DNA of 64,000 bases from a virus (IMGVR_UViG_3300045988_144682), one strand, 5' to 3'; shown: positions 37,550-63,671, counted from the first letter of the stretch. The notes: a model not told the origin generated them from the sequence alone. Made by a program: numbers and translations.

Positions 37550-37570
37550 CAATTCCACCAATTAAAAAAT

Positions 37571-37936: not shown

Positions 37937-38068
37937 TTTGAGCAATTTCAAACGCTCAACATTTTGATTTTTGTAGCTTGGTTTTAGCGAAAGCTGTGGA
38001 AACTATCTGTAAAATAGGGAGATAGTGTGTCTCATATGTGAGGTTTGTATGAGAAAAATTAAATATTT

Positions 38069-38194: not shown

Positions 38195-38197
38195 TTG

Positions 38198-38332
38198 GCG
38201 AGAGTATGCAAGAGGCTTAAGCAAATGATACAAAAATGTGCTTAGTTCTAGCACACACAGCAAAATTCTCAGAAGAAAACATTGATTCAAAATTGTAAGT
38301 TGAATTCGTGGGTTCAAATCCCACCTCTCGCC
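38198..38332 (+). tRNA. class-II-like tRNA-scaffold gene with insert (unit G)
   Basis: Acceptor GCGAGAG/CTCTCGC. Ser/Leu-like D arm TGC-AAGAGGCTTAA-GCA. T arm GTGGG-TTCAAAT-CCCAC. Long arm ATTCAA-AATTGTAAG-TTGAAT. Hairpin GTGCT-TAGTTCT-AGCAC followed by AC-ACAGCAAA (38257-64). Confidence 0.5.
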
Positions 38333-38333
38333 C

Positions 38334-38418
38334 TGGTGAAATGGTAATGGATTAGAATGGCAGCAATTCATATAGTTCCCCTGTAAAAACAAGGTTGCCA
38401 CTGATTCTTGCCACACCA
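38334..38418 (+). ncRNA. small structured RNA without T arm (unit H)
   Basis: TGGTG (38334-38) / CACCA (38414-18) closing helix. Contains CAGCAAT (38361-67). Has GGCAG/TTGCC internal pairing. Confidence 0.3.
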
Positions 38419-38421
38419 TAA

Positions 38422-38557
38422 GCGTATGTAGCTCAGTAGGTTAGAGCGTCCACAAAAATTTTATAGAGCCTTGTATAAGGCTTGAACCGCAAATATTTTT
38501 AAAGAATTTGAAATTGAGGAAGGTGGAAGGTCACAAGTTCAAGTCTTGTCATACGCA
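38422..38557 (+). tRNA. tRNA-scaffold gene with 69-nt anticodon-loop region (unit I)
   Basis: Acceptor GCGTATG/CATACGC. D arm GCTC-AGTAGGTTA-GAGC. Stem TCCAC (38449-53) / GTGGA (38523-27). Variable AGGTC. T arm ACAAG-TTCAAGT-CTTGT. Insert hairpin AGCCTT-GTAT-AAGGCT followed by TGAA-CCGCAAAT. Confidence 0.55.
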
Positions 38558-38651
38558 CTTATTCTAATTTTTATATACTTACAGCATAATCAAACAATAA
38601 TAAAGTATGTAGGAATTATGAAATATAATTCAAAATTAGGAGGAATTGAAC

Positions 38652-40205
38652 ATGGGTTTCATGAATTCAATGAAAAGTACGTTGAATGAAGATTTCAACG
38701 AAAGCTACACAGAAAACGGCGCACTTGGATATAGAACAACAGGTAAACACTTGCTTGATTTGAATTTCAAGGTCGCATCTCTGAGAAAAGCTGATGCAGA
38801 AACAATCATTTCTGGATTCGATAAAGCGTTTTCAGAAGACCATATTCACGCACTCAAATGGTTATTCTATTTGCGTGATGCGAGAGAAGGTCTGGGGGAA
38901 CGTAGATCATTCAGAATCATCATGTCTCATTTGGCAAATGTTGAGCCGGAAATCAGTAAAGTGCTGATTGGTTTAATCGCTGAATACGGACGTAGTGATG
39001 ATCTTCTCTCCCTGTTAGGTACAGAGTGTGAAAAAGACACACTGGAACTTATCAAAAATCAGCTAATGAAAGATTTAGAAGCAAAAAAAGCGAACAAACC
39101 AGTATCATTGTTTGCTAAGTGGTTGCCAAGTTGTAATGCAACTTCCCACAAAACAAGAGAAAATGCTGCAGTAATTCGTAAGTATTTGGGATTCACAGAA
39201 AGACAATATCGTAAGATTCTTTCGGAACTGAGAGAGTATATTGATGTTGTTGAAAGAAAGATGTCTGCTAAGAAATGGGGCGAAATCAATTACGAAGCCG
39301 TTCCGTCAAAAGCAAATCTTATTTACAACAATGCATTCCTCAAAAACGATGAGGAACGCAGACGAGAGTATCTGGATAAGCTGGAAAAGGGAGAGGCGAA
39401 AATCAACTCTTCTACAAACTTCCCACATGATATCGTACATAGTTATCTGAAAGGTCGTAGCTATTACAGATCCAATATAAAAGAGAACAAAGCTCTGGAA
39501 GCATTATGGAAAGCACTTCCTGATACAGTACAGGGTGATGGAAATACTCTTGTTGTCAGAGATGGTTCTGGAAGTATGATGTGTAGTGTTGATCCAAACA
39601 GCAGCATTACTGCACTGGAAGTCGCAACAGCACTTGCTATTTACTTCTCTGAGAGATGTTCTGGCGAATTCAAAGATAACTTTATCACATTCAGTTCAAG
39701 ACCTGAGTTGATTGATCTTTCAGCGTGTAGTTCACTGGCAGAAAAAATCAGAAGATGTTATGCAGAAAATGACTGTTCTAACACAGACATTGAAAAAACA
39801 TTTGATCTTATTCTGCAGACAGCTATCAATACTAATATGAAACAGGAAGACATGCCAAAGAATATCCTGATTATCAGTGATATGGAATTTGACCAGGCAA
39901 CCTATTCATATGGATGGGGAGGTAGCGCAAGCACAGTAAATGAAACACTGTTCAAGACAATTGGCAGAAAATTTGAGAAAGCTGGATATCAGCTTCCGAG
40001 ACTTGTGTTCTGGAATGTAAACTCACGTACCGGCACAATCCCTGTCAAGGAAAACGCTTTGGGTGTTGCTCTTGTAAGTGGATTCTCAGTCAATGTTGCG
40101 AAAATGGTATTAAGCGGAGAACTTGATCCGTATAAATGTCTGATTGAGCAGCTTGACACAGAGAGATATGCACCGATTGAGGCAGCAATCAAAGATTTAA
40201 AATAA
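38652..40205 (+). CDS. vWA-domain protein of the DUF2828 / TROVE (Ro60)-like architecture
   Basis: ATG at 38652 after AGGAGGA. A helical N-terminal about 300 aa beginning ..YTENGALGY.TTGK.LLDLNF. C-terminal vWA with MIDAS VVRDGSGSM and ISDMEFD. The family assignment is from memory. Confidence 0.6.
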   Translation: MGFMNSMKSTLNEDFNESYTENGALGYRTTGKHLLDLNFKVASLRKADAETIISGFDKAFSEDHIHALKWLFYLRDAREGLGERRSFRIIMSHLANVEPEISKVLIGLIAEYGRSDDLLSLLGTECEKDTLELIKNQLMKDLEAKKANKPVSLFAKWLPSCNATSHKTRENAAVIRKYLGFTERQYRKILSELREYIDVVERKMSAKKWGEINYEAVPSKANLIYNNAFLKNDEERRREYLDKLEKGEAKINSSTNFPHDIVHSYLKGRSYYRSNIKENKALEALWKALPDTVQGDGNTLVVRDGSGSMMCSVDPNSSITALEVATALAIYFSERCSGEFKDNFITFSSRPELIDLSACSSLAEKIRRCYAENDCSNTDIEKTFDLILQTAINTNMKQEDMPKNILIISDMEFDQATYSYGWGGSASTVNETLFKTIGRKFEKAGYQLPRLVFWNVNSRTGTIPVKENALGVALVSGFSVNVAKMVLSGELDPYKCLIEQLDTERYAPIEAAIKDLK

Positions 40206-40245
40206 AACAACTTCATACGTGGCAAAACAACCAAAGTAAAAAGTA

Positions 40246-40330
40246 CAGAAATGCCTTGTAAGACACGTACAGCAAATAATAATGCAATCAACTTTTAATT
40301 GATAACCGCAAACTAAGTGTCTTGAAGAAC
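40246..40330 (+). ncRNA. structured RNA, paralog of unit B (unit J)
   Basis: CAGAAATGCC (40246-55). AAGACAC (40260-66) followed by GT-ACAGCAAAT (40269-77). Inner hairpin ATCAA-CTTTTAA-TTGAT. GTGTCTT (40317-23) followed by GAAG. Followed by a strong terminator. Confidence 0.45.
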
Positions 40331-40344
40331 GTATATTCCATAAT

Positions 40345-40391
40345 GGTTAGACGAAGTGGCAGTGGTTGTAAGCACTTCTTCTAACCTTTTT
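40345..40391 (+). terminator. Rho-independent terminator
   Basis: GGTTAGACGAAGTG / CACTTCTTCTAACC: a 14-bp stem with one mismatch, followed by TTTTT. Confidence 0.75.
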
Positions 40392-40422
40392 GAATAGATA
40401 TTTTTCAACATAGAGGTTATAC

Positions 40423-41517
40423 ATGAGAAAGTTAGCAACAATTCGTGAAATCGCAGAAATCAAGCCGATTCCTGATGCTGACAGAATCGAAGTAGCAAGA
40501 ATTGATGGTTGGGAAGTTGTCGTGTCAAAGAAAGACAATTTTCATGTTGGCGATAGAGTGGTATATGTCGAGATTGACAGTAAGATGCCGGAAACGCCAG
40601 AGTATGAATTCTTGAAATCAAGAAAGTATGTTGTAAAGACTATCGTAATGAGAGGACAGGTTTCACAAGGATTAGTGATGCCGTTATCCATTCTTCCGGT
40701 AGGTGAATACAAACTTGGTCAGGATGTTACGGATGTCTTAGGAATCATTAAGTATGATCCACAGCTTGAAGAAGAAAATGCGGTTTTCGAGGAAAACAGA
40801 AAGAAAACCAGGAATCCAGTTGTGAAATTTTTAATGAGATATGCATGGTTCAGAAAAATCTATCTCAAGAAGAATACGCACACAGAGTTTCCAAACTTTA
40901 TTAAAAAGACAGATGAAGAAAGAATTCAGAATATGCCTGAGTTATACGAAAGGCTGAAGAATGAACAAACCAATCTGATAGTGACAGAAAAAGTTGACGG
41001 ATGTTCCGGCACTTATTTTTTACGCAAAATTCCGAGAAAATTCGGAAAAGCGAAGTACGAATTCGGAGTTTGCAGCAGAAATAGGAGATTGCCACAGCCG
41101 GATAACAGCTACTATTGGAAAATCGCCAACAAATACAAAATTCGCAGCGTTCTTGAAAAATTGATAGACGATGAGGATTATATAGTATTACAAGGCGAAA
41201 TTACTGGTGCAAAAATCCAGGGAAACAAATATCATGAGAAAGATTGCCAGTTATGGGCATTCAACCTCATAGCCCCCTCAAAGAAATATAATACCATTGA
41301 GATGCAAGACATTCTCATTAAGCATGGTATTCATACAGTACCAATTGTTGAGATTGGTTACAATGTAAAAGGTGATATACAAGATATTGTAAAGTATGTG
41401 AAAGGCAAGTCACAAATTGTAGATAGGGAAAGAGAAGGATGTGTTTTTAGAAATACTGATAAGAATATCAGTTTCAAATGTATTAACCCAAACTTCTTAA
41501 TCAAGAATAATGAGTAG
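40423..41517 (+). CDS. ATP-dependent RNA ligase (Rnl5/DraRnl-like, N-terminal OB-type extension)
   Basis: 364 aa. The N-terminus MRKLATIREI.EIKPIPDADRIEVA.IDGW.VV is typical of this ligase clade. Nucleotidyl-lysine motif TEKVDG. Confidence 0.72.
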   Translation: MRKLATIREIAEIKPIPDADRIEVARIDGWEVVVSKKDNFHVGDRVVYVEIDSKMPETPEYEFLKSRKYVVKTIVMRGQVSQGLVMPLSILPVGEYKLGQDVTDVLGIIKYDPQLEEENAVFEENRKKTRNPVVKFLMRYAWFRKIYLKKNTHTEFPNFIKKTDEERIQNMPELYERLKNEQTNLIVTEKVDGCSGTYFLRKIPRKFGKAKYEFGVCSRNRRLPQPDNSYYWKIANKYKIRSVLEKLIDDEDYIVLQGEITGAKIQGNKYHEKDCQLWAFNLIAPSKKYNTIEMQDILIKHGIHTVPIVEIGYNVKGDIQDIVKYVKGKSQIVDREREGCVFRNTDKNISFKCINPNFLIKNNE

Positions 41518-41612
41518 CCTTGAAAATATAATATCTTTTGCAATATGTCTTCTTGTTTTGGTCGTGTGTTTACGATTCTTAATTGTAGAAACACGGGAAG
41601 CAAGAAAATTTT

Positions 41613-42518
41613 ATGGGAAGGGAAATGAGAATGGATCGGAGCAGTATTGGTACGAGAATGAAATCTTATGAAGATGCTCAGAAAACGTACTTAACAAGAA
41701 GAATGCCAGTAATGATTAGAGTGGATGGAAATGCTTTTCATACATTCACCAGAGGTTTTGAAAGACCTTTTGACAGCATTATGGCAGAATCAATGCAGCG
41801 CACAATGAAATATATGTGCGAAAACATTTCTGGATGTGTCTTAGGATATACACAGAGCGATGAAATCACATTACTTCTGATTGATTACAAGAAAAAGAAT
41901 CAGGGAGCATGGTTTGGATATGTAAAGCGAAAGGTAGAAACTATCGCAGCGAGTATGGCAACAATGGCTTTCAATGAGGCTTTTTCAGATGTAATTACGG
42001 AAAAGATATCAGAAGACATTATGAAAGTTCAGAATGATGAAGAAGCCGAAAAAGTAAAGGATTACTATTTCAAATATGTAAAGAAATGTGGAAGGGCAAT
42101 GTTTGATGCTAGAGCATTTAATATCCCAGAATTTGAAGTAGTCAATGAATTTATTTGGAGGCAGCAGGATTGTACAAGAAATTCAATTCAGTCAGTTGGT
42201 CATGCAAATTTTTCAGATAAGAAAATGCATAAGAAAAATATGAGTCAGATTCAAGACATGCTCATGTTGAAGAAAGGAATCAACTGGAATGATTTTCCGA
42301 CTTTTCTGAAAAGAGGATCTTGTTGTATCAAAGAAGATTATTTCATTCCAGAAAATGAGCTTCCAGAAAATCACAGAAACAATTTATCCCCACGGACATT
42401 AGATCCAGAAGAAGATGAATATGGTGTGTGGAGATCACGTTGGGTTATCGACAAAGAAATTCCAATTTTCACACAGAACAAAAACTATGTTAATAATTTG
42501 TTTTTAAACAAGTATTAA
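41613..42518 (+). CDS. Thg1-like protein (tRNA 3'-5' nucleotidyltransferase/5'-end repair)
   Basis: 301 aa. RMKSYE....YL.RRMPVMIRVDGNAFHTFTRGFERPFD and GYTQSDEITLLL. The start may be the ATG at 41631. Confidence 0.82.
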   Translation: MGREMRMDRSSIGTRMKSYEDAQKTYLTRRMPVMIRVDGNAFHTFTRGFERPFDSIMAESMQRTMKYMCENISGCVLGYTQSDEITLLLIDYKKKNQGAWFGYVKRKVETIAASMATMAFNEAFSDVITEKISEDIMKVQNDEEAEKVKDYYFKYVKKCGRAMFDARAFNIPEFEVVNEFIWRQQDCTRNSIQSVGHANFSDKKMHKKNMSQIQDMLMLKKGINWNDFPTFLKRGSCCIKEDYFIPENELPENHRNNLSPRTLDPEEDEYGVWRSRWVIDKEIPIFTQNKNYVNNLFLNKY

Positions 42519-42550
42519 ACAAGCAATAATAAAGGAGAAAACAAAGCAAG

Positions 42551-43456
42551 ATGAAAACAAGTTATTCAGAAATCGTAAATGAAAACTACATCGGCAAAAC
42601 TGAAAATCCCATTCCGATGAATGAAATTCTGAAAAAAGCAAACGAAGAAAAGTTAGAGCCATCTTCAAGCAGTCTTGAAAAAGTGCTGTTTTTGGGAATT
42701 GATGTGCAGCAGGACTTCATGGATAACGGAGCGTTAGGTGTTCCCGGCGCACATGAAGATGTTGCTAGAATGACTAAGTTCATTTATAACAACATGGAGA
42801 AAATCTCGCACATTTCAGTATCTATTGATACTCACATTCCACACCAGATTTTCCATCCGTGTTGGTGGATTGATGAAAACGGCAATAATCCAGCACCTTA
42901 CACTGTTATTACATTAGCAGATTTGGATTCTGGAAAATGGCGTCCTATTGTTGAACCAATTAAGAGCCGTGAGTATGTAGAGAATCTGGAAAAGAACTCT
43001 AAAAAGAAACTTTGCATTTGGACATATCACTGCTTACAGGGTACAGAAGGTGCAGCACTGGAAAATCAGTTTGCAAATATGATTTACTTCCACAGTGTAG
43101 CAAGAAAATACGCACTGAACCCTATCGTAAAAGGTCAAGATCCACTGTCGGAGATGTACGGTATTATCAAGCCGGAATATGACAGAAGAGGATATGTGAA
43201 CCAGGCACTATTAAACAAGTTCGCAAAATTTGACAAAATCATCATCGGCGGTGAAGCAAGAGATTATTGCGTATACGAATCTCTCTGCCAGATGCTTGAA
43301 TTTTACAAAGATGACACTGATATGCTGAAAAAGTTCTACATTCTGGAAGATTGTATGTCTGCCATTGGTGATAAAGCCGAAGTTGACAAGATGTATGCAG
43401 ATCTTCAGAAAAAGTACAAATTCAACATTGTACGCAGCACTGAATTCAAACTGTAA
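42551..43456 (+). CDS. pncA: isochorismatase-family hydrolase, nicotinamidase-like
   Basis: 301 aa. FLGIDVQQDFMDNGALGVPGA, WTYHCLQGTEGA, IIGGEARDYCV (catalytic Cys context). Confidence 0.65.
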   Translation: MKTSYSEIVNENYIGKTENPIPMNEILKKANEEKLEPSSSSLEKVLFLGIDVQQDFMDNGALGVPGAHEDVARMTKFIYNNMEKISHISVSIDTHIPHQIFHPCWWIDENGNNPAPYTVITLADLDSGKWRPIVEPIKSREYVENLEKNSKKKLCIWTYHCLQGTEGAALENQFANMIYFHSVARKYALNPIVKGQDPLSEMYGIIKPEYDRRGYVNQALLNKFAKFDKIIIGGEARDYCVYESLCQMLEFYKDDTDMLKKFYILEDCMSAIGDKAEVDKMYADLQKKYKFNIVRSTEFKL

Positions 43457-43467
43457 GGAGTAGAAAG

Positions 43468-44127
43468 ATGGAAGAAATTATTATTGATGGATTAGACGAA
43501 ATCGAAATGCAGAATACAGCCGTTGATGATATCGACAGTGAAAATGTCAATCTGATTTTCATTGGAATTGACAAATCTGGATCAATGTCCCCATACAGAG
43601 GTGATATGGTTTCTTGTCTGAAAGAGTTCAAACAGGCATTAACCGACTCTAAAGAGGCAGATGAAATTTTAGTAGCAAGAGCAGACTTTAACAGCTCAAT
43701 CAACGTGGGTGGTTACAAGAAAATCACAGAGTTTGATACAAACTACGATGCCAGTGGTATGACAGCACTGTACAATGTCATTGAAGATGGTACACAGAAA
43801 CTTACTGACTACATGGAATATCTGAAACAGCAGGGAGTACGTGTAAAAGCGGTATTTGCAATTTTCAGTGATGGTGAGGATACAGTTTCCAATGATCCGA
43901 GTGAAGCAAAACACAGAATTCAGGATCTAAACAATAAAGAAATTACAACAGCTTTCATTAGTTTTGGTGGTACAGCTACAGGTATTGCAAAGAGCCTGGG
44001 ATTTAGAAATATTCTGGATGTATCAAGTTCTGCATCTGAGCTGAGAAAAGCGTTCGATTGTCTGAGTAAATCTGTAATCGAAAGCTCAAAGAGTGTTGTA
44101 GCCGATGGAGATAACTTCTTCATTTAA
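43468..44127 (+). CDS. vWA-domain protein (TerY-like)
   Basis: 219 aa. MIDAS IGIDKSGSM, later T.L and FSDGEDT. Confidence 0.78.
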   Translation: MEEIIIDGLDEIEMQNTAVDDIDSENVNLIFIGIDKSGSMSPYRGDMVSCLKEFKQALTDSKEADEILVARADFNSSINVGGYKKITEFDTNYDASGMTALYNVIEDGTQKLTDYMEYLKQQGVRVKAVFAIFSDGEDTVSNDPSEAKHRIQDLNNKEITTAFISFGGTATGIAKSLGFRNILDVSSSASELRKAFDCLSKSVIESSKSVVADGDNFFI

Positions 44128-44181
44128 GAATAACAGAATTCGCCCCATTCATTAAGGGTGGGGCGATACACGGAGAAAAAT

Positions 44182-44820
44182 ATGTTTGTAAACAAAATAG
44201 GTTACGATCATTTATCTATCGGAATGAACTGCCAGGATTACGGATTTGAATTGTCGGATTATAAAGTGAAAGTTGTAGCAGATGGTTGTTCTGAGGGATT
44301 ACATTCAGAAGTAGGAGCAAAGACATTTTGCCACCTGTTGTCAAAAGGATATGATATCGAACAGGCTTTTTCTTCTTTGGTTGCTGTATATGGGCAGACA
44401 ATTGAGGATATGAAGAATTTCTTGTGCTTTACATATCTTTCGGTAACAGAAAGTAATGAATATTTCATTACATCAAATTGTGGCGATGGTTTCCTTATTT
44501 TGGAAGATAACGAAGGTAATATATCGTTTGTTGAATTAACCGATGGCGAATATCCGAAATACTATATCTACAACTATATTGACAAAAAATATCTTAATCA
44601 TTATGCAGATGGTGTTTCTGTAGAAAATAAGCTATTCAGCAAGGAAGAATACAAGAATGTAGGTATTGCTTCCGATGGATTGAGATTTATTGTAAATGCA
44701 GATGAAGATATCAAACAGGAATTTATTGAATGTTTAAAGTCTGGGAAAGCAGTGAAAATAAAAAGATTTATTAACCGTAACCAGAAATTATTCAGAGATG
44801 ATATTACAATTGTTTTTTAA
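44182..44820 (+). CDS. PP2C-family protein phosphatase-like
   Basis: ATG at 44182 after GGAG. NCQDYG......VVADGCSEG.HSEVGA, NCGDGF, IASDG. Confidence 0.65.
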   Translation: MFVNKIGYDHLSIGMNCQDYGFELSDYKVKVVADGCSEGLHSEVGAKTFCHLLSKGYDIEQAFSSLVAVYGQTIEDMKNFLCFTYLSVTESNEYFITSNCGDGFLILEDNEGNISFVELTDGEYPKYYIYNYIDKKYLNHYADGVSVENKLFSKEEYKNVGIASDGLRFIVNADEDIKQEFIECLKSGKAVKIKRFINRNQKLFRDDITIVF

Positions 44821-44834
44821 GAAAGGGACATATA

Positions 44835-45800
44835 ATGGGAAAAATTACTGAGAAATCAACAAAAGCACAGATTATGGACGCATATACTCAGGCATTAGCT
44901 GAGTTGGAGAAACTTAAAGCTATGAGCGATTCGCCGGTTGAAAATGCAAAGAAAGAGGCATTGGAAGCATCTATGCAGAATGCAGAAATAGCAGCAAGCA
45001 ATGAAGTATTTTCAGATACGATTGTAAAACAGTACAATGATCTGAAAATTGCGATTGACGAATATCAGAAAGAGTTAGAAGGACTCTACGGTATCAAAGC
45101 TGAAGCTGACGGTCTGGCAGCAGCTATCAATGCTCATAGAGCGAAAGTAGCTGAAATGAACGATGAGTATAAACAGAAGAAAGCGGATCTCGATGCAGAG
45201 CTGGCACGGAAGACAGTAGAAGTAAAAGAAAAGATTGCAGATTTGGAAAAGAGTGTTCAGAAAGCTAAGAAACAGGCTGATGAAGAAGTAAAAGAGTATA
45301 ATACCGATATCAACAAGAAACGTAATCGTGAGAAAGATGAGTATGACTACAATCTGAAGATGGATCGTAAGGCAGATGCCGACACTTGGGCAGAAGAAAA
45401 AGAAAAGCGTGAAGCAGAAATTCAGGCAAAAGATGATGCCGTAACAGAGCGTGAAGAAGCGATTGCTGCGAAAGAAGAAGAAATCCAGGCTATGAAAGCA
45501 CAGATTGAAGCATTCCCGGATAAACTGGCAGAAGCCAAAGAGGACGCAGCGAAAGAGGCAAAGGCTAAAGCGGACAAGAGTTTTGCATTTGAAAAACGTG
45601 CGTTAGAATCTGATAAAAAACATGCAGAGGAAATGGCAGATGCAAAAATCAAGAATCTGGAATCTCAGGTTGAAGCACTGACACAGAGCAATGCGGAACT
45701 TTCCAATAAACTTGATGCAGCATATGCTCAGATGAAAGACATGGCAACCGCTACTGTCCAGGCTGGCGCAACTGTAAAGGTCGTATCAAGCGACAAGTAA
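44835..45800 (+). CDS. Ala/Glu/Lys-rich coiled-coil protein
   Basis: 321-aa low-complexity heptad-rich ORF sitting between the phosphatase and the kinase. Confidence 0.6.
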   Translation: MGKITEKSTKAQIMDAYTQALAELEKLKAMSDSPVENAKKEALEASMQNAEIAASNEVFSDTIVKQYNDLKIAIDEYQKELEGLYGIKAEADGLAAAINAHRAKVAEMNDEYKQKKADLDAELARKTVEVKEKIADLEKSVQKAKKQADEEVKEYNTDINKKRNREKDEYDYNLKMDRKADADTWAEEKEKREAEIQAKDDAVTEREEAIAAKEEEIQAMKAQIEAFPDKLAEAKEDAAKEAKAKADKSFAFEKRALESDKKHAEEMADAKIKNLESQVEALTQSNAELSNKLDAAYAQMKDMATATVQAGATVKVVSSDK

Positions 45801-45823
45801 AATAAAAGAAAGCCGATAGAGAA

Positions 45824-47515
45824 ATGATTTTAAAAAGTAACATAACAAGATTGCCGGTATTAGCCGAAGGTGGAGAAGGAATTATATATGAATATGGAGA
45901 TAAGCTGATAAAGGCTTATAAATCCCATGTGAATATGCCAACCAAAGAGAAAAAGATTAAACTCTTAATGGCGAAGAATTTACCGGCAGAAGTCATTTCT
46001 CCGATTGATATTGTCTATGACAGCCGGAATAAATTTGTTGGTTACATCATGGACAAAGTAGACGGAGAAGAATTCAAGAAATTGTCAAATAAAAAATTCG
46101 TGAAAGCGAATGGAATTACAAAGAAAGAGATTCTTGCCATGCTTGACAGATTGTTTGATGTTTTGGCTGATTTGCATAAGCAGGGCATATACATTGGCGA
46201 TTTGAACGATCAGAACATTTTGTTTGATAAGCACTATAATATCTCTATCATTGACTGCGATAGTTGGTCAATTGATTCTGAGAAATGTGATGTTGCTATG
46301 GATTTATTCAAAGATCCGTTACTGGTTTCAAATAACTTTGACCAAAAAACAGATACATATGCATTCAGTGTATTGAGTTGGAAATCTCTGACACGAATTC
46401 ATCCGTTTGGTGGGACAATGCAGCCGGATATGAATATTATGGAACGTATGAAGAAAGGTATATCCGTGATAGACAATCTGGCGGTAAAGATTCCGAAAAC
46501 AATCGGATCATGGGCTGGTCTATCGCCAGAGCTTATCAGTGCGCTCAAAGCAGTTTTCGAGAATAAAAGCCGGGAACTTCACGGTGAAATTCATGAGCTA
46601 AGTTGTCATTTGAAATACTGTGATACAGATAAGGATTATTACTATGATAAATACAATGTCTGCCCAGTATGTGATAACTCTGCAAGGATCAATAGAAAGC
46701 CGATAAATCAGGGCGTACAGTCTGGATTACAGCTTGTAGAACTGTTGGTTAAATCAAGCATTAAAGCGGTTGTCGATGAGAATATGTACATTGATACCGA
46801 TGATAATGTTGTAGATATCAAGAGTGGCAAGAAATATAAGCACAAAAACTTGATAAAATATCATTTTCATTCAGATGGATATTTGATTGAGGATGATAAT
46901 AATACGATTGTCATTCACAGCGAAAAAGATTATGAGCTTGATAAAAAGTTCAAATCAAGAGTAGTTGTTGATGGGGATAAGATGTATTACATTTCAAAGC
47001 AGAACACCTTGACAGAAGTGACTATTACGAAGGATGGGAATAGCTTTAGAAATCTTTGTAAATGCAGCGATAGTTGTTATTTTGAAGTAAGCAATGGAAA
47101 GTATTTCGTTGTCAACTATTATCAGAGCAAAATAATCTTTGATATCAATGGCATAAACCACATTTATAAATATGACGGAAGGATTACAAATTATGGTATT
47201 CACTATGATGTTGCCACTGATAAGTGGTTAGTAGTCTTGGAAAATGAAACTGGAAGTTTCTTAACTCTTGTATTTAAAGGAAATGATATTCAATATGAAT
47301 GTAATGAAATTAAGTATGAGTGTTCGCTTGGAAACATGTGTATGAGTAATAACACAATCTTTTTCCCGATTGATGGAAAAATAAGAGGTTTTGCTTATGC
47401 AAAAGATATGTTTAAAGATTTTCAGTGTGGTGTTGTAAATTATGATAGCAAATTGATTAAGAGTGGCAAAAAAATCATTATCGTCAACGATGAAAATATA
47501 TATGCTCTATCATAG
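45824..47515 (+). CDS. Ser/Thr protein kinase-like protein with C-terminal beta-rich domain
   Basis: 563 aa. Gly-loop-like GGEGIIYEY, IKAYK, catalytic-loop-like LHKQGIYIGDLNDQNILF, IIDCDSW (DFG-equivalent), and a CPVC zinc knuckle. Confidence 0.7.
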   Translation: MILKSNITRLPVLAEGGEGIIYEYGDKLIKAYKSHVNMPTKEKKIKLLMAKNLPAEVISPIDIVYDSRNKFVGYIMDKVDGEEFKKLSNKKFVKANGITKKEILAMLDRLFDVLADLHKQGIYIGDLNDQNILFDKHYNISIIDCDSWSIDSEKCDVAMDLFKDPLLVSNNFDQKTDTYAFSVLSWKSLTRIHPFGGTMQPDMNIMERMKKGISVIDNLAVKIPKTIGSWAGLSPELISALKAVFENKSRELHGEIHELSCHLKYCDTDKDYYYDKYNVCPVCDNSARINRKPINQGVQSGLQLVELLVKSSIKAVVDENMYIDTDDNVVDIKSGKKYKHKNLIKYHFHSDGYLIEDDNNTIVIHSEKDYELDKKFKSRVVVDGDKMYYISKQNTLTEVTITKDGNSFRNLCKCSDSCYFEVSNGKYFVVNYYQSKIIFDINGINHIYKYDGRITNYGIHYDVATDKWLVVLENETGSFLTLVFKGNDIQYECNEIKYECSLGNMCMSNNTIFFPIDGKIRGFAYAKDMFKDFQCGVVNYDSKLIKSGKKIIIVNDENIYALS

Positions 47516-57848: not shown

Positions 57849-59831
57849 ATGTCAAGACAAGATGATTTAAAAGAGATACGAGAACTAACCATTAAATTAA
57901 ATCAATGGTGTTATGAGTATTATGCACTCTCAAAACCGTCTGTTTCTAATGATGTGTTCGATCAAAATTTTGACCGGCTCAAATATTTAGAAGATAAAAC
58001 AGGGTTCTTTTTCTCTGGTAGTCCAGTAAGAACCGTTGGATTCAGAGTAAGTTCGGAACTTCCTAAAATTAAACACAGTTCTCCATTGTTGAGTCTGGAT
58101 AAGACGAAAGATAGAAAGGTTGCAATGGATTTTACTAAAAATCGGGAAGCACTTCTTATGTATAAACTGGATGGATTAACAATTTGCCTGGAATATGAAG
58201 ATGGTAAATTGGTAAGAGCAGCAACAAGAGGAAACGGCGAAGAAGGAAGCATTATTACCGATAATGCAAAAACGTTTGTAAATGTGCCACTTCAAATAGA
58301 ATATGAAGGGTACTTAAAAGTTACCGGCGAAGGAATCATTCATAGAGATGATTTTGAAGCCATAAATGCTCAGATTCCTAATGCGGATGACAGATATAAG
58401 ACACCACGAAATTTGGCAAGTGGATCAGTGCAACAACTTGATTCAGGTGTTTGTGCAAAGAGAAAAGTATATTTTTATGCGTTCAATGTTCTTGAAGGAT
58501 TAGAAGAGATCAATTCTCTGAATGGTAGATTGACACGGATTAAAGAGTTTGGTTTCGATGTGTGCAAATACAGAATGTTCAACCCAAAAGATATTGAATT
58601 TGAAACATTTGACTTTATGATGGATAGCATGGTAATGGAAGCTCAAAAAGAGAACATACCCATTGATGGTCTTGTTGTTATGTATGACGATATTGAGTAT
58701 GGAAAGAAACAGGGCAGAACAGGACACCATTATAGAAATGGTATCGCATTCAAATTTAAGGAAGAAGAGGAAGAGAGTGTAATCCATAGCATTGATTGGC
58801 AAGTTGGAAGAACGGGAAAGATTACGCCGGTTGCAGTTTTCGATACAGTTATTCTTGATGGTACAGACGTTAGTAGAGCATCATTACACAATCTCAGTAT
58901 CATTAAAGAACTTGGAATTAAAAATGGTGCAAAAGTAACTATTGTCAAGAAGAATGAAATCATACCGCAAATAATAAAAGCCACTGGTGGAACAGAAGAT
59001 TTTGAAGTGCCAAAAGTATGCCCTATTTGTGGAGGTACTACAACTCAGTGTTCAGATGGTGGAAGCGTATCATTATATTGCAGAAATATTGATTGTGCAG
59101 CACAAAATATTAGAAAGATTGCTTATTTTGCATCAAAAGAATGTATGAACATAGATGGTCTTTCTGAAAAAACGGTAGAGAAATTCATTGATGCCGGGAT
59201 TATCAAGAATATTTTAGATATCTACAAACTGGAAAACCACCATGATGAAATCGTTGGTTTTGAAGGTATGGGAGAAAAATCATTTGCAAAATTACTTTCT
59301 GCCATTGAGAAGAGTAAAAATGTGAAATTGGAAAATTTCATTGCCGGACTTGGAATACAGAATATCGCATTAAGCAAAGCAAAGATTATTAGCAGACGGT
59401 TTGACGGTGACTGGGATTTATTTGAAAATGCGTTGAAATCAAGATTTGATTTTACAGAATTGGAGTCATTTGGAACAGAAGTAAATAAGTGTATCTATGA
59501 GTTTTTCGATAATGTATTTTTAAAGAACGATATGTATTCCGAGTTGGTATCGTATATGCATTTTGTAAAAGAAGAGAAAAATTCCGATGTCTTTGCCGGA
59601 AATATCTTTGTAATTACTGGTAGCCTTAATATCTTCTCAAACAGAAAAGAGCTACAAGAAAAGATCGAATCACTTGGAGGAAAGGTAGCTGGTGGAGTTT
59701 CAAAGAAAACAACGTATTTAATCAATAATGATATTGAAAGTTCTTCGAGTAAGAATCGTGATGCTAAAAAGAATAATGTGCCGATTATTACAGAAGAAGA
59801 ATTTTTAAATATGATAAACAGACAAAAATAA
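57849..59831 (+). CDS. ligA: NAD+-dependent DNA ligase
   Basis: 660 aa. Adenylation YKLDGL, TRGNG..G, Zn finger CPICGG...C....C, HhH region, and a C-terminal BRCT (FVITGSL). Confidence 0.93.
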   Translation: MSRQDDLKEIRELTIKLNQWCYEYYALSKPSVSNDVFDQNFDRLKYLEDKTGFFFSGSPVRTVGFRVSSELPKIKHSSPLLSLDKTKDRKVAMDFTKNREALLMYKLDGLTICLEYEDGKLVRAATRGNGEEGSIITDNAKTFVNVPLQIEYEGYLKVTGEGIIHRDDFEAINAQIPNADDRYKTPRNLASGSVQQLDSGVCAKRKVYFYAFNVLEGLEEINSLNGRLTRIKEFGFDVCKYRMFNPKDIEFETFDFMMDSMVMEAQKENIPIDGLVVMYDDIEYGKKQGRTGHHYRNGIAFKFKEEEEESVIHSIDWQVGRTGKITPVAVFDTVILDGTDVSRASLHNLSIIKELGIKNGAKVTIVKKNEIIPQIIKATGGTEDFEVPKVCPICGGTTTQCSDGGSVSLYCRNIDCAAQNIRKIAYFASKECMNIDGLSEKTVEKFIDAGIIKNILDIYKLENHHDEIVGFEGMGEKSFAKLLSAIEKSKNVKLENFIAGLGIQNIALSKAKIISRRFDGDWDLFENALKSRFDFTELESFGTEVNKCIYEFFDNVFLKNDMYSELVSYMHFVKEEKNSDVFAGNIFVITGSLNIFSNRKELQEKIESLGGKVAGGVSKKTTYLINNDIESSSSKNRDAKKNNVPIITEEEFLNMINRQK

Positions 59832-59843: not shown

Positions 59844-60263
59844 ATGAAGATTGCAGAGTTAGAAATCAACATTATGGCAGTACCACAGGGATATTACTTA
59901 GCACAAGGAATTTCCAGAGATCTCAATTTTAAGGTTGGTCTTCCGGCAGTATTTGAGAAGACATACAATCTGAAAGAAAAGTTGACTGATAAGTACGATG
60001 AGATTGAGTGTGGAGAAACATATCTTATTGATAATGTTTATTCTCTGGTTGTAAAAGATAGCAGCTATGACAGCCCGGATAGAGATCTTCTTATGGAAGC
60101 ACTGGTTAATCTGAGAGATCAGATGGAAGAAAACAAGGTTACAAAACTTGCCATTCCACGACTTTGTTGTGGTAGAGGTGGTCTTGACTGGGACGATGTG
60201 AAAGCAATGATTGGATTTGTTTTCGGAGATGCGGATATTCAGATTCTTGTTTGTGTGCAATAG
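59844..60263 (+). CDS. macrodomain protein, TARG1/OARD1-like
   Basis: 139 aa. Aligns by eye to human TARG1: ..LAQGISRDLNFKVGLPAVF.., YSLVVKDSSYDSP, L..AL..L.......VTKLAIPRLCCGRGGLDWDDVKAMI..VF. Confidence 0.7.
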   Translation: MKIAELEINIMAVPQGYYLAQGISRDLNFKVGLPAVFEKTYNLKEKLTDKYDEIECGETYLIDNVYSLVVKDSSYDSPDRDLLMEALVNLRDQMEENKVTKLAIPRLCCGRGGLDWDDVKAMIGFVFGDADIQILVCVQ

Positions 60264-60272
60264 GAGGTAACT

Positions 60273-60575
60273 ATGGAAGAGAAATCACCAGTTTACCTTG
60301 TTATGGTAACAACAAACAATAATAATAAATATTATCGCATGATTCCACATGGTGATACTTTCGAGGCTGAATATGGTCGTGTTGGTGCAAGTTGCCAGCA
60401 CGCCTCCTATTCAATGTCACAGTGGAATAAGAAGTACAATGAGAAAATTAAAAAAGGATATGTGGATCAGACACATCTTGTACAGGATTTGATTCAGAAA
60501 GAAAAACCAAAAGGAAAAGACGGTTATAAAGAAATTGAAAATAAAGTAATTGCAGAAATCGTTCAAAGACTTTAA
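60273..60575 (+). CDS. WGR-domain protein
   Basis: 100 aa. KYYRM......FEAEYGRVGA......Y....W...Y.EKIKKGY. Ends with TAA, in frame with the next ORF. Confidence 0.78.
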   Translation: MEEKSPVYLVMVTTNNNNKYYRMIPHGDTFEAEYGRVGASCQHASYSMSQWNKKYNEKIKKGYVDQTHLVQDLIQKEKPKGKDGYKEIENKVIAEIVQRL

Positions 60576-60578
60576 GAT

Positions 60579-61487
60579 ATGGCTCATCAGAAAATCCAGG
60601 CGAACTATAAGGTTTCATCTCAGCAAGTAACGCAAGCTATGGTGGACGAAGCACAGAAGGTAATTGATAAGCTCATGCAGCGAGAAGAAGTAGAGGACTT
60701 CAATAATACTTTGCTAGAGTTGTTTAGTGTAATTCCACGAAAAATGGGAAATGTCAATGATTATCTTTCCAGAAGCAAAGAAGATTTCGCACGCATTCTC
60801 AAAGATGAACAGGATCTACTTGATGTAATGAGAGGTCAGGTTGTTACACATACAGTACAGGATGAGCCAGACACCGATGATGTGGAAGAGAAGCAAGAAA
60901 CCATTATTGAAGCAATGGGGCTTGAATTTGAGGAAGTAACAGAAGACGATGTGCGAATGATTAAGAGTCTGCTTGGAGATTGTCGAGATAAATTCTATAG
61001 AGCATGGCGTGTCAAGAATATTAAGACACAAAAACGATTTGATGAGTTTGTCAACAAAGAACATATTTCAAAAACTAAGCTGTTATGGCATGGAAGTAGA
61101 AATGAGAACTGGTGGTCAATCATCAATACTGGTCTTGTTTTACGTCCGACAAATGCGGTTATTACAGGGAAGATGTTTGGATTTGGTATTTACTATGCCC
61201 CAAAAGCAAGAAAATCGTTAGGTTATACATCTTTGAGCGGATCATACTGGGCGAGAGGAAATTCAAATTCGGCATTTATGGCACTTATGGATGTGGCATA
61301 TGGAAAGCCATATGATGTACATTCTTTTGATAGTAAATATTATGATTTCAATTATGAACGATTACAGAAGACATGCCCAGGTGCGAATTGCTTACATGCT
61401 CATGCTGGTAGTATGTTGAGAAATGATGAAATTATCGTATATAAAGAAGACCAGTGTACAATCAAATATTTAGTTGAACTGAGATAA
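60579..61487 (+). CDS. PARP-family ADP-ribosyltransferase (helical regulatory + catalytic domain, H-Y-E intact)
   Basis: 302 aa. LLWHGSRNENWWSIINTGL, GKMFGFGIYYAP, NDEIIVY...IKYLVEL (compare PARP1 LLWHGSR / GKGIYFA / YNEYIVY). No SD. The ATG lies 3 nt after the WGR stop, in the same frame. Confidence 0.88.
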   Translation: MAHQKIQANYKVSSQQVTQAMVDEAQKVIDKLMQREEVEDFNNTLLELFSVIPRKMGNVNDYLSRSKEDFARILKDEQDLLDVMRGQVVTHTVQDEPDTDDVEEKQETIIEAMGLEFEEVTEDDVRMIKSLLGDCRDKFYRAWRVKNIKTQKRFDEFVNKEHISKTKLLWHGSRNENWWSIINTGLVLRPTNAVITGKMFGFGIYYAPKARKSLGYTSLSGSYWARGNSNSAFMALMDVAYGKPYDVHSFDSKYYDFNYERLQKTCPGANCLHAHAGSMLRNDEIIVYKEDQCTIKYLVELR

Positions 61488-61499
61488 GGAGAGATGATT

Positions 61500-61646
61500 A
61501 TGGTAGTAAAAAATTGTAGAGAATGCGAACACACAAATAACTGTAGATCATATTATAGTGGACTCGGCTGTAAAAAGCGTGATGAAATTCTCAAACATAT
61601 TGCAGAGTTAGAAGCTGAAAAGAAAGAAGGTAAAGCAAATGATTAA
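61500..61646 (+). CDS. 48-aa Cys-rich peptide
   Basis: AAGGAGAG RBS. MVVKNCRECEHTNNCRSYYSGLGCKKR... Below the track cutoff. Confidence 0.4.
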   Translation: MVVKNCRECEHTNNCRSYYSGLGCKKRDEILKHIAELEAEKKEGKAND

Positions 61647-61758
61647 AATAGGATTGGCTTTAATTGGTGTAGCGGTAGTTGTAGGTTTGTATTCTTGTGT
61701 TGTGGCTGGTAAAAATACAGACAATGCGATGCATGATTACTTTGAAAAATATAAATAA
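61639..61758 (+). CDS. 39-aa membrane peptide
   Basis: MIKIGLALIGVAVVVGLYSCVVAG... Overlaps the upstream stop. Confidence 0.4.
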   Translation: MIKIGLALIGVAVVVGLYSCVVAGKNTDNAMHDYFEKYK

Positions 61759-61799
61759 AATATGTTTTTTATTTTGTTGAGAAATATCCCCACTTTTAG

Positions 61800-61828
61800 T
61801 TGATATATTGCCGTTATTTTGGTATAAT
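61800..61828 (+). promoter_or_regulatory. sigA-type promoter with about 140-nt leader
   Basis: TTGATA at 61800-61805, 17-nt spacer, TGgTATAAT at 61820-61828. Confidence 0.6.
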
Positions 61829-61971
61829 TCACCATTTTCAATAGTATTCTCTGCCATAATACAATCTATTCCTCCACTATTTAAACGCATTTGCATGAAC
61901 TTATCTTAGAACCACCGATATTTAGCTGATTTGCGGTATAAGATAAAAAACATATTCACACAGAAAGTAGT

Positions 61972-62892
61972 TTGAAATTACTTCAAGCACTTCCTTTGGA
62001 TTTGAAGATTGCGAAGACTCAGAATAGAATCAGAGAGTGGTATAATTATTATGGTGGAGAAGTATATGTAAGTTTTTCTGGTGGAAAAGACAGTACAGTA
62101 TTATTGGATATTGTAAGAGGATTATACCCAGATATAGATGCGGTATATGTAGACACTGGACTTGAATATCCAGAATTGAGAGATTTTGTGAAAACGATTG
62201 ATAATGTCACATGGTTAAAACCAAAAAAGAATTTCAAGAGTGTTATTCAAGAATATGGATATCCAATCGTCAGTAAAGAAGTGGCAAATAAGGTTCATGG
62301 TGCGAAACCTGGAAATACAAGGTGGCAGCAACTTCATGGTACATACATTGATAATAATACCGGCAAGTTATCTACGCATTATAATTATAAGAAATGGGAG
62401 TATTTGCTTGATGCTGACTTTAAGATATCAGATCAGTGTTGTGCAATTATGAAAAAACGCCCATCTCTACAGTATGAGAAACAAACTGGTAAAAAACCAA
62501 TCTTGGGACTCATGGCAGCAGAAAGCCAAAAGAGAAAAACAGATTATATGAAAACTGGTTGCAATGCTTTTGATAAAGAGCGTCCACAGAGTCAACCTAT
62601 GGGATTTTGGACTGAACAAGACGTTTTACAATATCTGTATGAAAAGAAAATTCCGTATGCATCAGTCTATGGAGATATAGTATTGGAAGATGGAAAATAT
62701 CGCACGACTGGATGTAACAGAACCGGCTGTATTTTTTGTGGCTTTGGCTGCCACCTCGAAAAAGAACCAAACAGATTCCAAATGTTAAAGCAAACACACC
62801 CGAAATTATGGGAATATTGTATGAAACCGATTGAATCTGGTGGATTGGGAATGAGAAACGTAATGGAATATATCAATGTTCCTATAGAATAA
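61972..62892 (+). CDS. PAPS-reductase-family (PP-loop ATPase) protein
   Basis: 306 aa. TTG start in the track. VSFSGGKDSTVLLD PP-loop. C-terminal CNRTGCIFCGFGC cluster. Confidence 0.78.
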   Translation: MKLLQALPLDLKIAKTQNRIREWYNYYGGEVYVSFSGGKDSTVLLDIVRGLYPDIDAVYVDTGLEYPELRDFVKTIDNVTWLKPKKNFKSVIQEYGYPIVSKEVANKVHGAKPGNTRWQQLHGTYIDNNTGKLSTHYNYKKWEYLLDADFKISDQCCAIMKKRPSLQYEKQTGKKPILGLMAAESQKRKTDYMKTGCNAFDKERPQSQPMGFWTEQDVLQYLYEKKIPYASVYGDIVLEDGKYRTTGCNRTGCIFCGFGCHLEKEPNRFQMLKQTHPKLWEYCMKPIESGGLGMRNVMEYINVPIE

Positions 62893-63010: not shown

Positions 63011-63671
63011 ATGAAAACAAATGAAATATATAATATGGATTGCATGTCATTCCTCCATAGCGTAGATGGGGGGGCAATTTGACTTAACACTAACAGATAT
63101 CCCATATGGTGAAGTGAATCGTTCCAGTAATGGGCTGAGGAATCTGGATAAAGAGGATGCTGATATATTGACCTTTAACCTACAAGACTTCTTAAAAGAG
63201 ATTTATGAGGTTACAAAAAGTACGATCATAATATTTTGTGGGAAAGAACAGATGTCGGAAATTCATAAATTTTTTTCTGAAAAACAGAAGAAAGGAAAAG
63301 GAACAGTCCGGCAGCTTGTATGGAAGAAAACGAATCCTTCACCTATGAATGGGCAGAATATCTATCTTTCCGGCATTGAAAATGCTGTGTGGTTCAAGAA
63401 GCGTGGCGGTACATTCAATGCTCACTGCAAAAATACAGTGTTTGAATATCCGTGTGGAAGAAACAAATTACACCCTACAGAAAAGAACCATGAGTTATTG
63501 CGAGAGCTGATAAGAGATAACAGTAATGAGGGCGATATAGTTTTTGATCCATGTTGCGGAAGTGGCGCACACTGTTTAGTTGCGAAGGAAGAGAATAGAA
63601 ATTACATAGGTGTTGAGCTGAAAAATCAATATTATGAAATTGCAAAGGAAAGGTTGAAAAATGTCTCATAA
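63011..63671 (+). CDS. DNA methyltransferase (beta-class, N6A/N4C type) frameshifted at a G7 tract
   Basis: ATG at 63011 gives MKTNEIYNMDCMSFLHSVDGGAI-stop. The ORF 63066-63671 continues in another frame with FDLTLTDIPYG (motif IV) ... FDPCCGSGAH (motif I). Removing one G from 63068-63074 fuses them. Confidence 0.75.

Follow-up and report, generated by a model that had tools for sequence, protein, structure and literature searches.

A premature stop codon in a fused WGR-PARP gene of a gut phage and the recurrent disruption of this gene

Does a phage locus in which a WGR domain and the catalytic domain of a PARP are encoded by two open reading frames (ORFs) represent a two-gene system, or a single gene that has been broken? 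The question is raised by the virus IMGVR_UViG_3300045988_144682, of which a stretch of 64,000 nucleotides (nt), hereafter the window, was analyzed. At positions 59844-61487, a gene for a TARG1/OARD1-like macrodomain is followed by a WGR ORF and an ORF for the helical and catalytic domains of a PARP, the last two separated by one in-frame stop codon. Here we show that the stop is a real, recent, minority nonsense allele of a normally fused PARP; that the split is a disrupted allele of one gene, neither two genes nor a new architecture; and that this gene is disrupted specifically and repeatedly, by mutation and by site-specific inversion.

The interrupted PARP locus

The locus comprises the following features (lengths in amino acids, aa).

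59844-60263, plus strand: TARG1/OARD1-like macrodomain gene, putative ADP-ribose eraser, 139 aa, stop codon TAG
60273-60575, plus strand: WGR fragment ORF, 100 aa, stop codon TAA; WGR core (residues 8-67) followed by a Lys/Glu-rich linker
60573-60575, plus strand: premature stop TAA (Q101*), derived from a CAA ancestor by one C-to-T change at 60573
60579-61487, plus strand: PARP helical-domain and catalytic ORF, 302 aa, stop codon TAA; starts at Met103, H-Y-E triad intact
60273-61487, plus strand: ancestral single gene for a PARP with WGR, helical and ADP-ribosyltransferase (ART) domains, 404 aa, broken at codon 101 in the window

An earlier note on this sequence had described three consecutive plus-strand genes, macrodomain, WGR and PARP, at exactly these coordinates, with WGR and PARP in one frame, separated by TAA-GAT before the ATG, and with no Shine-Dalgarno sequence for the PARP ORF; all of this was confirmed on the sequence. 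The junction reads GTT CAA AGA CTT TAA GAT ATG GCT (VQRL-stop-D-MAHQ) in the shared frame. The 20 nt upstream of the PARP ATG (tcgttcaaagactttaagat) contain no GGAGG-like motif, unlike the starts of the macrodomain, WGR, LigA (NAD+-dependent DNA ligase) and orf50 genes, each of which has a clear ribosome-binding site. The stop-to-start spacing at the junction is 3 nt (TAA-GAT-ATG), within the few nucleotides expected for termination-reinitiation.

The stop is a recent nonsense mutation

Relatives were identified by searching a large protein database with the conceptual readthrough product. Essentially all of the 120 relatives with 70-99% identity are fused proteins of about 404 aa, and one fused cluster that is 99% identical comprises 869 member sequences; the distant phage relatives, LR756500.1 (424 aa) and Cellulophaga phage phi4:1 gp031 (383 aa), are likewise fused. 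Across the range from 35% to 99% identity, the relatives are single fused proteins, and in all intact relatives WGR is on the same polypeptide as the helical domain, from which TAA parts it in the window. The column of the stop holds Gln in nearly all relatives, within the motif VQRL-Q-DMAHQK, and Met103, the start of the PARP ORF, is an ordinary internal methionine of the fused proteins. No conserved split arrangement was found among the relatives, and the split allele is one base away from an intact haplotype. Between the window and the intact allele L110, the remaining 1214 positions of the gene agree and only the stop codon differs, being CAA in L110; a single C-to-T change at 60573 therefore accounts for the stop. 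CAA is present in 20 of the 30 aligned close alleles, L110 among them, and in all 11 of the IMG/VR and metagenome contigs retrieved by DNA-pattern scans that accepted either base.

The stop codon itself is authentic. The exact 100-aa product and the exact 302-aa product are each encoded on at least 20 contigs, and TAA was directly inspected in at least nine independent samples processed with different assemblers (ENA MEGAHIT, SPAdes, Logan). The allele is in the minority, with an index count of about 21 blocks compared to 616 for the neighbouring macrodomain allele, and no nonsense allele occurs in the 27 loci that were not selected on PARP state. Q101* is also found on a second background: apart from the stop, the allele L015 is identical to the intact L024, and its haplotype has 62 differences from the window. 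Independent recurrence of Q101* in L015 appears more likely than recombination because the nearest flanking differences are only 10 and 23 nt away.

These comparisons bear on the view that the canonical WGR-regulatory-catalytic architecture is interrupted here by a single stop, and on the three explanations that had been offered for it. The stop is real, but the split does not hold as an arrangement: in the ortholog comparison that had been proposed to tell fused from split, the orthologs are fused. A recent nonsense mutation is strongly supported by the Gln column of the relatives and by CAA in the otherwise identical allele. Stop-codon readthrough finds no support, given that TAA and TAG end the neighbouring genes, that the allele is in the minority, and that the gene carries other frameshifts and stops. 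Termination-reinitiation may occur as a by-product of the 3-nt spacing, but not as a conserved design, with Met103 ancestral and the split unfixed.

Recurrent lesions in the PARP gene

Q101* is one of many lesions of this gene. The lesion alleles were found by looking up broken products, so that the following catalogue is partly ascertained through such products.

Codons 42-208: at least 13 independent nonsense alleles (Q42, Y63, Q71, Q75, Q98, Q101, Q106, Q109, Q118, Q136, R137, Q196, Q208)
Codon 78: frameshift, +1 in an A-run
Codons 96 and 128: deletions of 17 nt and 26 nt, respectively

Protein fragments hint at further deletions and a frameshift in the catalytic domain. The nonsense changes comprise 12 C-to-T and one T-to-G, and C-to-T changes have hit 12 of the 20 positions in codons 42-208 at which they could create a stop. 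In a distance tree, several nonsense alleles coincide with intact haplotypes apart from the stop, and the same change can recur on different haplotypes: at least two and up to five for Q101*, three for Q71*, and two each for Q106*, Q109* and Q118*. Q71* reaches 46 index blocks. Counts of index blocks suggest roughly 10% broken alleles in total, against no nonsense allele in the 27 loci not selected on PARP state; broken alleles are thus a minority, of between a few percent and about 10%.

The genes around the locus include the following.

57849-59831, plus strand: complete gene for the NAD+-dependent DNA ligase LigA, 660 aa (Pfam DNA_ligase_aden, 6e-45; OB and BRCT domains)
61494-61646: orf50, within the invertible segment A-B described below
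61639-61758: orf39, a membrane-like ORF of 39 aa, within the invertible segment A-B
61972-62892, plus strand: PAPS-reductase-family gene (Pfam PAPS_reduct), downstream of the switch described below
63066-63671, plus strand: N6/N4 DNA methyltransferase gene, next after the PAPS reductase (PF01555 in related loci; NCBIfam 6.6e-21)

Lesions are nearly absent from the neighbours surveyed: none in ERCC4 in 34 of the same loci, no real lesion in LigA in 51 related loci (about 80 kb surveyed), none in the PAPS reductase in 45 loci, none in orf50 and orf39, and a single frameshift lineage in the macrodomain gene among the same loci. The cluster members of neighbouring genes are almost all full length. 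The PARP gene itself is under purifying selection: the ratio of nonsynonymous to synonymous substitution rates (dN/dS) between intact alleles is about 0.05, and 0-0.01 in the linker, and about 75 of 80 diverse IMG/VR PARP loci are intact. The full-length protein is under strong long-term constraint, and short-lived knock-outs arise repeatedly.

Two specific causes were considered and rejected. A cytidine-deaminase hotspot behind the C-to-T stops is incompatible with the lack of a common flanking motif and with the T-to-G allele. Severing targeted at the linker does not fit the stops at Q42, Y63, Q136, R137, Q196 and Q208; the linker clustering of stops seen early arose because the lookup used the exact 302-aa product.

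Outside the close clade, in which the broken alleles are single-hit, a PARP pseudogene with several indels and stops occurs in a clade of about 80% identity (L037, 4006-5209; IMGVR_UViG_3300045988_156620). A more distant relative, a 290-kb contig (L079; IMGVR_UViG_3300032167_003270), encodes two full-length PARP homologues in tandem on the same strand (2113-3306 and 4001-5200), with about 66% identity to the query.

A three-site invertible switch

The second mode of disruption involves three short sites that share the core A(A/G)AACATATT.

61053-61068, plus strand: site A (AACAAAGAACATATTT), inside PARP codons 261-266 (NKEHI); inverted repeat with site B
61758-61775, minus strand: site B (reverse complement AAAATAAAAAACATATTT), after orf39
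61940-61956, plus strand: site C (AAGATAAAAAACATATT), before the PAPS-reductase start
61069-61757: invertible segment A-B, containing PARP codons 267-404 (the whole H-Y-E core), orf50 and the 39-aa ORF
61776-61939: invertible segment B-C, carrying the best promoter-like site of the region

Segment A-B is inverted in L085, L161 and L162, with bounds that coincide exactly with the repeat arms, and the inverted form of B-C is carried by L006, L023 and L162 and by L004/L012, which otherwise match the window at 100% identity; all four switch states occur among the loci. The junctions of all recombinants show a clean reciprocal half-site exchange at AACATATT. Thus, sites A, B and C display what defines an inverton, namely, inverted repeats, both orientations among the loci, and exchange at a common core. 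Inversion of A-B separates the entire H-Y-E core from the gene; among the 27 loci chosen regardless of PARP state, 3 are flipped in this way. The ends of seven contigs, among them L018, L118 and L166 at A and L010/L017 and L022 at B, coincide exactly with one of these two sites, as expected from assembly-graph branching where both junctions are present in one sample, to judge from the contig ends. Chimeric proteins of the two reciprocal types are also found, each on multiple contigs: PARP residues 1-265 joined to the tail of a minus-strand ORF (P0168, P0171, P0174), and the head of that ORF joined to PARP residues 266-404 (P0127, P0128, P0130). Site A is present only in the closest clade ('KEHI' alleles).

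A promoter scan placed a promoter-like site in B-C at 61800-61828, plus strand, with TTGATA, a 17-nt spacer and a TG-extended TATAAT (11 of 12 matches). In the orientation of the window, this predicted promoter faces the PAPS-reductase and methylase genes, and B-C looks like a classical promoter inverton. The called length of the PAPS reductase, 296-357 aa, varies with the switch state (296-306 vs 344-357 aa by orientation). The B-C inverton (61758-61956; L004 7181-7378, L006, L023, L162) lies just upstream of the PAPS-reductase and N6/N4 methyltransferase genes and may provide phase-variable DNA modification in a phage. The switch region is polymorphic beyond the inversions: a variable insertion of 0.65-1.3 kb, with ORFs of 74-79 aa, occurs between the 39-aa ORF and site B (L006 7182-7829, L023 5488-6786, L119 2545-3190).

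No recombinase was recognized among the larger ORFs scanned in the window, with about 110 kb of the genome lying outside it. The one recombinase-like protein among them, encoded at 35925-36893, contains a core-binding domain of that type (Pfam MrpR_N_CB, 3.5e-20) and was considered as an invertase; its PDB matches are to the MrpR/YopR repressor, with no match to a catalytic domain, and it was rejected. The 46-codon minus-strand 'head' ORF (61896 down to 61760), which fuses in frame to the PARP C-terminus or to the PAPS reductase after inversion, is probably no gene: its ATG has no promoter-like site ahead of it, the strong plus-strand promoter runs antisense to it, and its tail is antisense to a better ORF, that of 39 aa.

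With known invertons, shufflons and partial-intergenic invertons (fimS, hin, R64 shufflon; PhaVa, bioRxiv 10.1101/2023.03.11.532203), this region has in common the short inverted repeats, the occurrence of both orientations in nature and the conservative core exchange. It also resembles them in its promoter-bearing segment and in a gene-breaking inversion with an outcome of the premature-stop type. It differs from known invertons in its location in a phage genome, in the presence of three sites and four states, and in a breakpoint inside an ADP-ribosyltransferase gene. Neither recurrent inactivation nor an invertible switch was found for any PARP in the literature searched.

Interpretation and alternatives

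The explanation that best accounts for these observations as a whole, to which we assign a probability of roughly 0.6, is that the window carries a natural PARP knock-out or strong hypomorph amid recurrent, conditionally favoured inactivation. Under this explanation, the C-to-T change that turns the Gln101 codon CAA into TAA would abolish the full-length PARP, leaving at most a free 100-aa WGR fragment and an inefficiently reinitiated helical-catalytic protein from Met103. By analogy with PARP1-3, the latter would lack its sensor and would be auto-inhibited and blind to nucleic acid; Q101* is thus predicted to be a null allele or a strong hypomorph. When on, the PARP would act while the phage replicates and repairs its genome, sensing ends of DNA or RNA and ADP-ribosylating itself, other proteins or phosphorylated nucleic-acid ends, a modification that the macrodomain and a hydrolase of the ADP-ribosylglycohydrolase (ARH) family, encoded downstream in related loci, would reverse. 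The full-length PARP would be useful in the long term, as argued by the strong purifying selection, yet conditionally costly, so that off variants would recur and be transiently tolerated or favoured; candidate costs are NAD+ drain or toxicity in lysogens and recognition by host defence. At least a transient advantage of the off alleles is suggested by the recurrence of stops across haplotypes, their presence in tens of index blocks, and the common inversion.

Several points weigh against this explanation. The choice between a knock-out and a two-part enzyme is drawn from comparative data, and a split function is physically possible, with the stop in an inter-domain helix, both domain ORFs whole and a start 3 nt downstream. 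The 27 loci not selected on PARP state include no nonsense allele, and the lesion catalogue was partly ascertained via broken products. Site A could be a chance pseudo-site, used by a recombinase whose proper function is the B-C promoter switch, and the scan of the larger ORFs in the window identified no recombinase. The off alleles may be favoured or merely weakly deleterious, either of which would fit.

The strongest competitor, near-neutral decay, appears possible although we consider it clearly the less probable account. In this scenario, PARP is a weakly selected accessory gene in which mutation-selection balance becomes visible through deep sampling, being off brings no advantage, and the inversion at A is accidental, caused by a recombinase of the B-C promoter switch. 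The broken alleles are indeed all young and located at the tips of the tree, no nonsense allele is seen in the unselected loci, the mutations are of an ordinary kind (mostly transitions, a single transversion, no hotspot motif), and site A is confined to the closest clade. However, identical nonsense changes occur on several haplotypes, single alleles reach dozens of index blocks (46 for Q71*), far above the per-site expectation under mutation-selection balance, neighbouring genes of similar or larger size are nearly lesion-free, and the A-B inversion, at 3 of 27 loci, is common.

A more far-reaching version of conditional inactivation can be proposed only tentatively. PARP could be a deliberately switchable, conditionally dangerous effector, with a dedicated recombinase toggling both its catalytic core and the PAPS/methylase promoter, and the swarm of nonsense alleles would represent parallel adaptive escapes; candidate pressures are host immunity that senses PARP activity, its product or NAD+ depletion, or toxicity in the lysogen. 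If true, PARP here would be the first writer of ADP-ribosylation to show phase variation, and would point to the role of phage PARPs.

We regard it as improbable that the split is functional, that is, that reinitiation at the ATG yields a free WGR sensor and a helical-catalytic subunit that reassemble non-covalently into a selected two-component PARP. Such an enzyme would be compatible with the intact ORFs on both sides of the 3-nt gap, with the position of the stop, which a structural model places in the linker helix between the domains, with the spread of the allele over more than one haplotype and at least 20 contigs, and with the 7 nonsense sites, out of 13, that fall in linker codons 71-118. 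Nevertheless, Met103 is ancestral in the fused proteins and is not preceded by a Shine-Dalgarno sequence, the split is fixed in no lineage, and the allele matches an intact haplotype. Some other alleles shift the frame or end within the WGR domain (Q42, Y63) or within the helical domain (Q136, R137, Q196, Q208), and none of them could supply the same two parts. Moreover, the clustering in the linker is partly an artefact of fragment discovery, and the linker is under purifying selection as part of one protein (dN/dS 0-0.01).

Recoding, in which a phage suppressor tRNA would read TAA and TAG as Gln and the full-length protein would be made, is very unlikely. Gln codons are replaced at 11 of the 13 nonsense sites, and five tRNA genes in the window have interrupted anticodon loops and anticodons that cannot be read with confidence. 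However, CAA-to-TAA and CAG-to-TAG are the transitions by which stops most often arise; a Gln code does not accommodate R137 (CGA-to-TGA) or Y63 (TAT-to-TAG); and frameshifts, deletions and inversions strike the same gene. TAA ends the polIII, LigA, PARP, orf50, PAPS-reductase and methylase genes and TAG ends the ERCC4 and macrodomain genes, with each of these stops preceding a spacer or the ribosome-binding site of the next gene, and there are no in-frame stops in the neighbouring genes in 34-51 loci. The standard and intron-aware tRNA scans of the window predicted no tta, cta or tca anticodon, and the suppressor tRNA was rejected. A sequencing or assembly error in the window, for which the single-base difference from the commonest haplotype might speak, can be dismissed, with the same allele recovered from at least nine inspected independent samples by different assemblers and from at least 20 indexed contigs.

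The cassette as such is of a known, uncharacterized kind; what is new is the recurrent, PARP-specific inactivation, including the three-site switch in the catalytic domain. To our knowledge, a biological role has been demonstrated for none of the phage and bacterial PARPs, which have been catalogued for more than a decade. The intact gene, the 13 nonsense alleles, one frameshift, two deletions and the reversible inversion form a natural allelic series on near-identical genomes from hundreds of human-gut samples, and with it the purpose of a phage PARP becomes a testable question. For annotation, the lesson is that a 'split WGR + PARP' should be entered as one gene present in a disrupted allele.

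Relationship to known PARPs

The domain labels given earlier, WGR and H-Y-E PARP, hold by Pfam, by alignment of the triad in PDB matches, and by collinearity with PARP2. In the window, the PARP ORF matches the Pfam PARP catalytic domain with 86 bits (3.1e-24) and the WGR ORF matches Pfam WGR with 26.8 bits (cutoff 22). Pfam PARP_reg was not detected in the PARP ORF, and the helical domain is visible only by PDB alignment, which matches residues 11-130 with this domain in PARP1 catalytic fragments (E = 5e-13). In the same type of alignment, WHGS, GIYYA and NDEIIVY match H862, Y896 and E988 of PARP1 residue for residue; in the numbering of the fused protein, the triad is H273 (61089-61091), Y307 (61191-61193) and E386 (61428-61430), and it is invariant across an alignment of 18 relatives. 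A profile made from these 18 relatives aligns with full-length PARP2 in three blocks that keep the same order in both, namely WGR, catalytic core and C-terminus.

An AlphaFold model of the fused protein is of moderate confidence (mean predicted local distance difference test score, pLDDT, 64.5; predicted template modelling score, pTM, 0.39) and was consulted only for the secondary structure around residue 101 and for a Foldseek comparison in support, whose top match is PARP2 WGR-CAT on DNA (7AEO). The model has a beta-sheet at residues 7-47 (pLDDT 72-92) and helices at 121-189, with residue 101 in the predicted inter-domain linker helix. The PARP protein has no match in PADLOC or NCBIfam. By these sequence comparisons, it is classified as a PARP of the PARP1-3 type, with WGR, helical and ART domains and a complete H-Y-E/NAD+ site.

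The phage PARP has the same collinear WGR, helical and ART order as human PARP2 and PARP3 and, like the PARP1 clade, keeps H-Y-E and the nicotinamide-site residues (K-S...Y); its gene lies beside a ligase gene, among replication and repair genes. It differs from the human proteins in its length of 404 aa without an N-terminal extension, zinc fingers or BRCT domain, and in being encoded by a bacteriophage and, in the copy of the window, cut at codon 101. Minimal H-Y-E PARPs with a WGR(-helical)-catalytic architecture are known from Herpetosiphon aurantiacus, from C. difficile CD160 (CdPARP) and from a Clostridiales clade (PMC4245714, PMC5966428); in the Clostridiales WGR-PARP_cat clade, the helical domain is missed by Pfam as well (PMC5966428). 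Phage PARPs of this minimal type already catalogued include those of Cellulophaga phi4:1 (gp031), Aeromonas phage Aeh1, Xanthomonas XacN1 and jumbo phages (PMC4245714, PMC7824862), and gut 'NAD-jumbo phages' carrying PARP and LigA have been described (PMC11662467). From these known phage carriers of PARP the present lineage differs in being an SPbeta-like phage of Lachnospiraceae of about 175 kb, as far as its genome context indicates (see below).

The gp031 protein of phi4:1 is 31% identical to the PARP of the window over its full length, and a DNA ligase gene lies one gene away from it, as LigA lies near PARP in the window. The intervening gp030 has no Macro match, whereas in the window the macrodomain gene is directly upstream of PARP; gp030 was considered as a macrodomain and dropped, being without Pfam support. 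In this unrelated marine phage (L002, 2977-6759), the fused PARP gene is flanked by a tRNA nucleotidyltransferase gene, gp032, and the ligase, gp029, is ATP-dependent, which makes this an independent PARP-ligase association with a different ligase family.

The macrodomain and the writer-eraser pair

The TARG1-like label of the macrodomain gene is sustained by a match over the full length of the protein: among solved structures, the best match is human TARG1/OARD1 (4j5r/4j5q; E = 7.3e-12, residues 7-136 vs 12-143), followed by the DarG macrodomains 5m3i and 5m31. The Pfam Macro score is borderline (22.7 bits vs a cutoff of 22). Lys71 ('SLVVKDS') aligns with the catalytic Lys84 of TARG1 ('YLITKKR'; K80 in DarG). 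The likeness to TARG1 and DarG thus extends over the full length and includes the catalytic Lys, whereas the catalytic Asp125 of TARG1 is not kept: Gly112 occupies its position ('CGRGGLDW' vs 'CGLDRLQW'), with an Asp 3 residues later. Matches to DarG were obtained in PADLOC (2.9e-11) and, below the cutoff, in NCBIfam (2e-10; 40.5 vs 250 bits). The match covers profile positions 90-142 of 329, and the C-terminal DarT-binding domain of DarG was not found in the 139-aa protein. A DarTG toxin-antitoxin or defence system was rejected, given that the partner is PARP rather than DarT and that PARP has no PADLOC match.

The macrodomain gene lies immediately upstream of PARP in 65 of the 74 related IMG/VR loci, and the macro-PARP pair is a conserved module; the placement of a writer beside an eraser, pointed out in the earlier note, is therefore real. 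The same note placed the pair directly after the NAD+-dependent ligase, which is correct here but not in general: adjacency of LigA, found in 22 of the 74 loci, is clade-specific. In vitro, PARP1-3 and TARG1 act as writer and eraser on DNA ends that are phosphorylated, and TARG1 reverses ADP-ribosylation of DNA ends of the PARP3 type (PMC8385414); the roles proposed above for the phage pair agree with this chemistry.

The only macrodomain lesion found is a 1-nt indel (110 vs 139 aa) in the gene at 129-461 of L122 and L124. These genomes, a single lineage, are those with PARP Q196*, a pattern that fits an eraser becoming dispensable after the loss of the writer. A second candidate eraser, a conserved ADP-ribosylglycohydrolase (ARH family, 262 aa, Pfam 4e-26), is encoded beyond the end of the window, about 4 kb downstream of PARP (L004 10559-11613), and is followed by a crAss001_48-related protein of 88 aa (PF21825).

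Genome context

Megablast of the region against the INPHARED phages gave no DNA-level match, and protein-level relatives were used instead. The product of 35925-36893 is a homologue of the SPbeta prophage master repressor MrpR/YopR (PDB 8a0a/8bj6), which suggests a temperate SPbeta-like phage. The polymerase III alpha subunit is closest to those of the Clostridioides phage-plasmid pCD1602_4 and the Bacillus phages Kirov and PBC2 (42-47% identity). The organism names borne by identical neighbour proteins indicate hosts among the Lachnospiraceae (Fusicatenibacter saccharivorans, Ruminococcus sp.), and the contig sizes suggest a phage genome of about 175 kb, at times embedded in contigs of 0.4-1.4 Mb.

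The window also encodes a nicotinate phosphoribosyltransferase (NAPRTase, Pfam 8e-68; 5518-6834), and thus NAD+ salvage alongside two NAD+ consumers, LigA and PARP. A phage tmRNA is located at 11992-12373 (Rfam, 80 bits), with the ARAGORN tag peptide AEELRMVA. An RNA-repair and signalling block at 28077-47515 encodes an RlaP nucleotidyltransferase, a CCA-adding enzyme, a DUF2828/DUF7788 protein, an RNA ligase, a Thg1-like guanylyltransferase, a PP2C phosphatase and a Ser/Thr protein kinase. Elsewhere in the window are genes for a P-type cation ATPase (20825-23458), FolD (14033-15010), a GmrSD-like nuclease (2761-3924) and an SNF2 helicase (8-1867).

An array of six tRNA genes at 37187-38558, plus strand, is flanked by the RNA-repair-type genes (CCA-adding enzyme, RlaP, RNA ligase and Thg1-like protein). 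Five of the six have anticodon-loop insertions of 32-70 nt; standard ARAGORN misses all five, Rfam calls two of the interrupted genes tRNA (58 and 54 bits), and the anticodons are unreliable. A hairpin with ACAGCAA(T/A) after it is common to four of the inserts. The inserts are too short for group I introns and may represent an unusual intron-like interruption of phage tRNAs.

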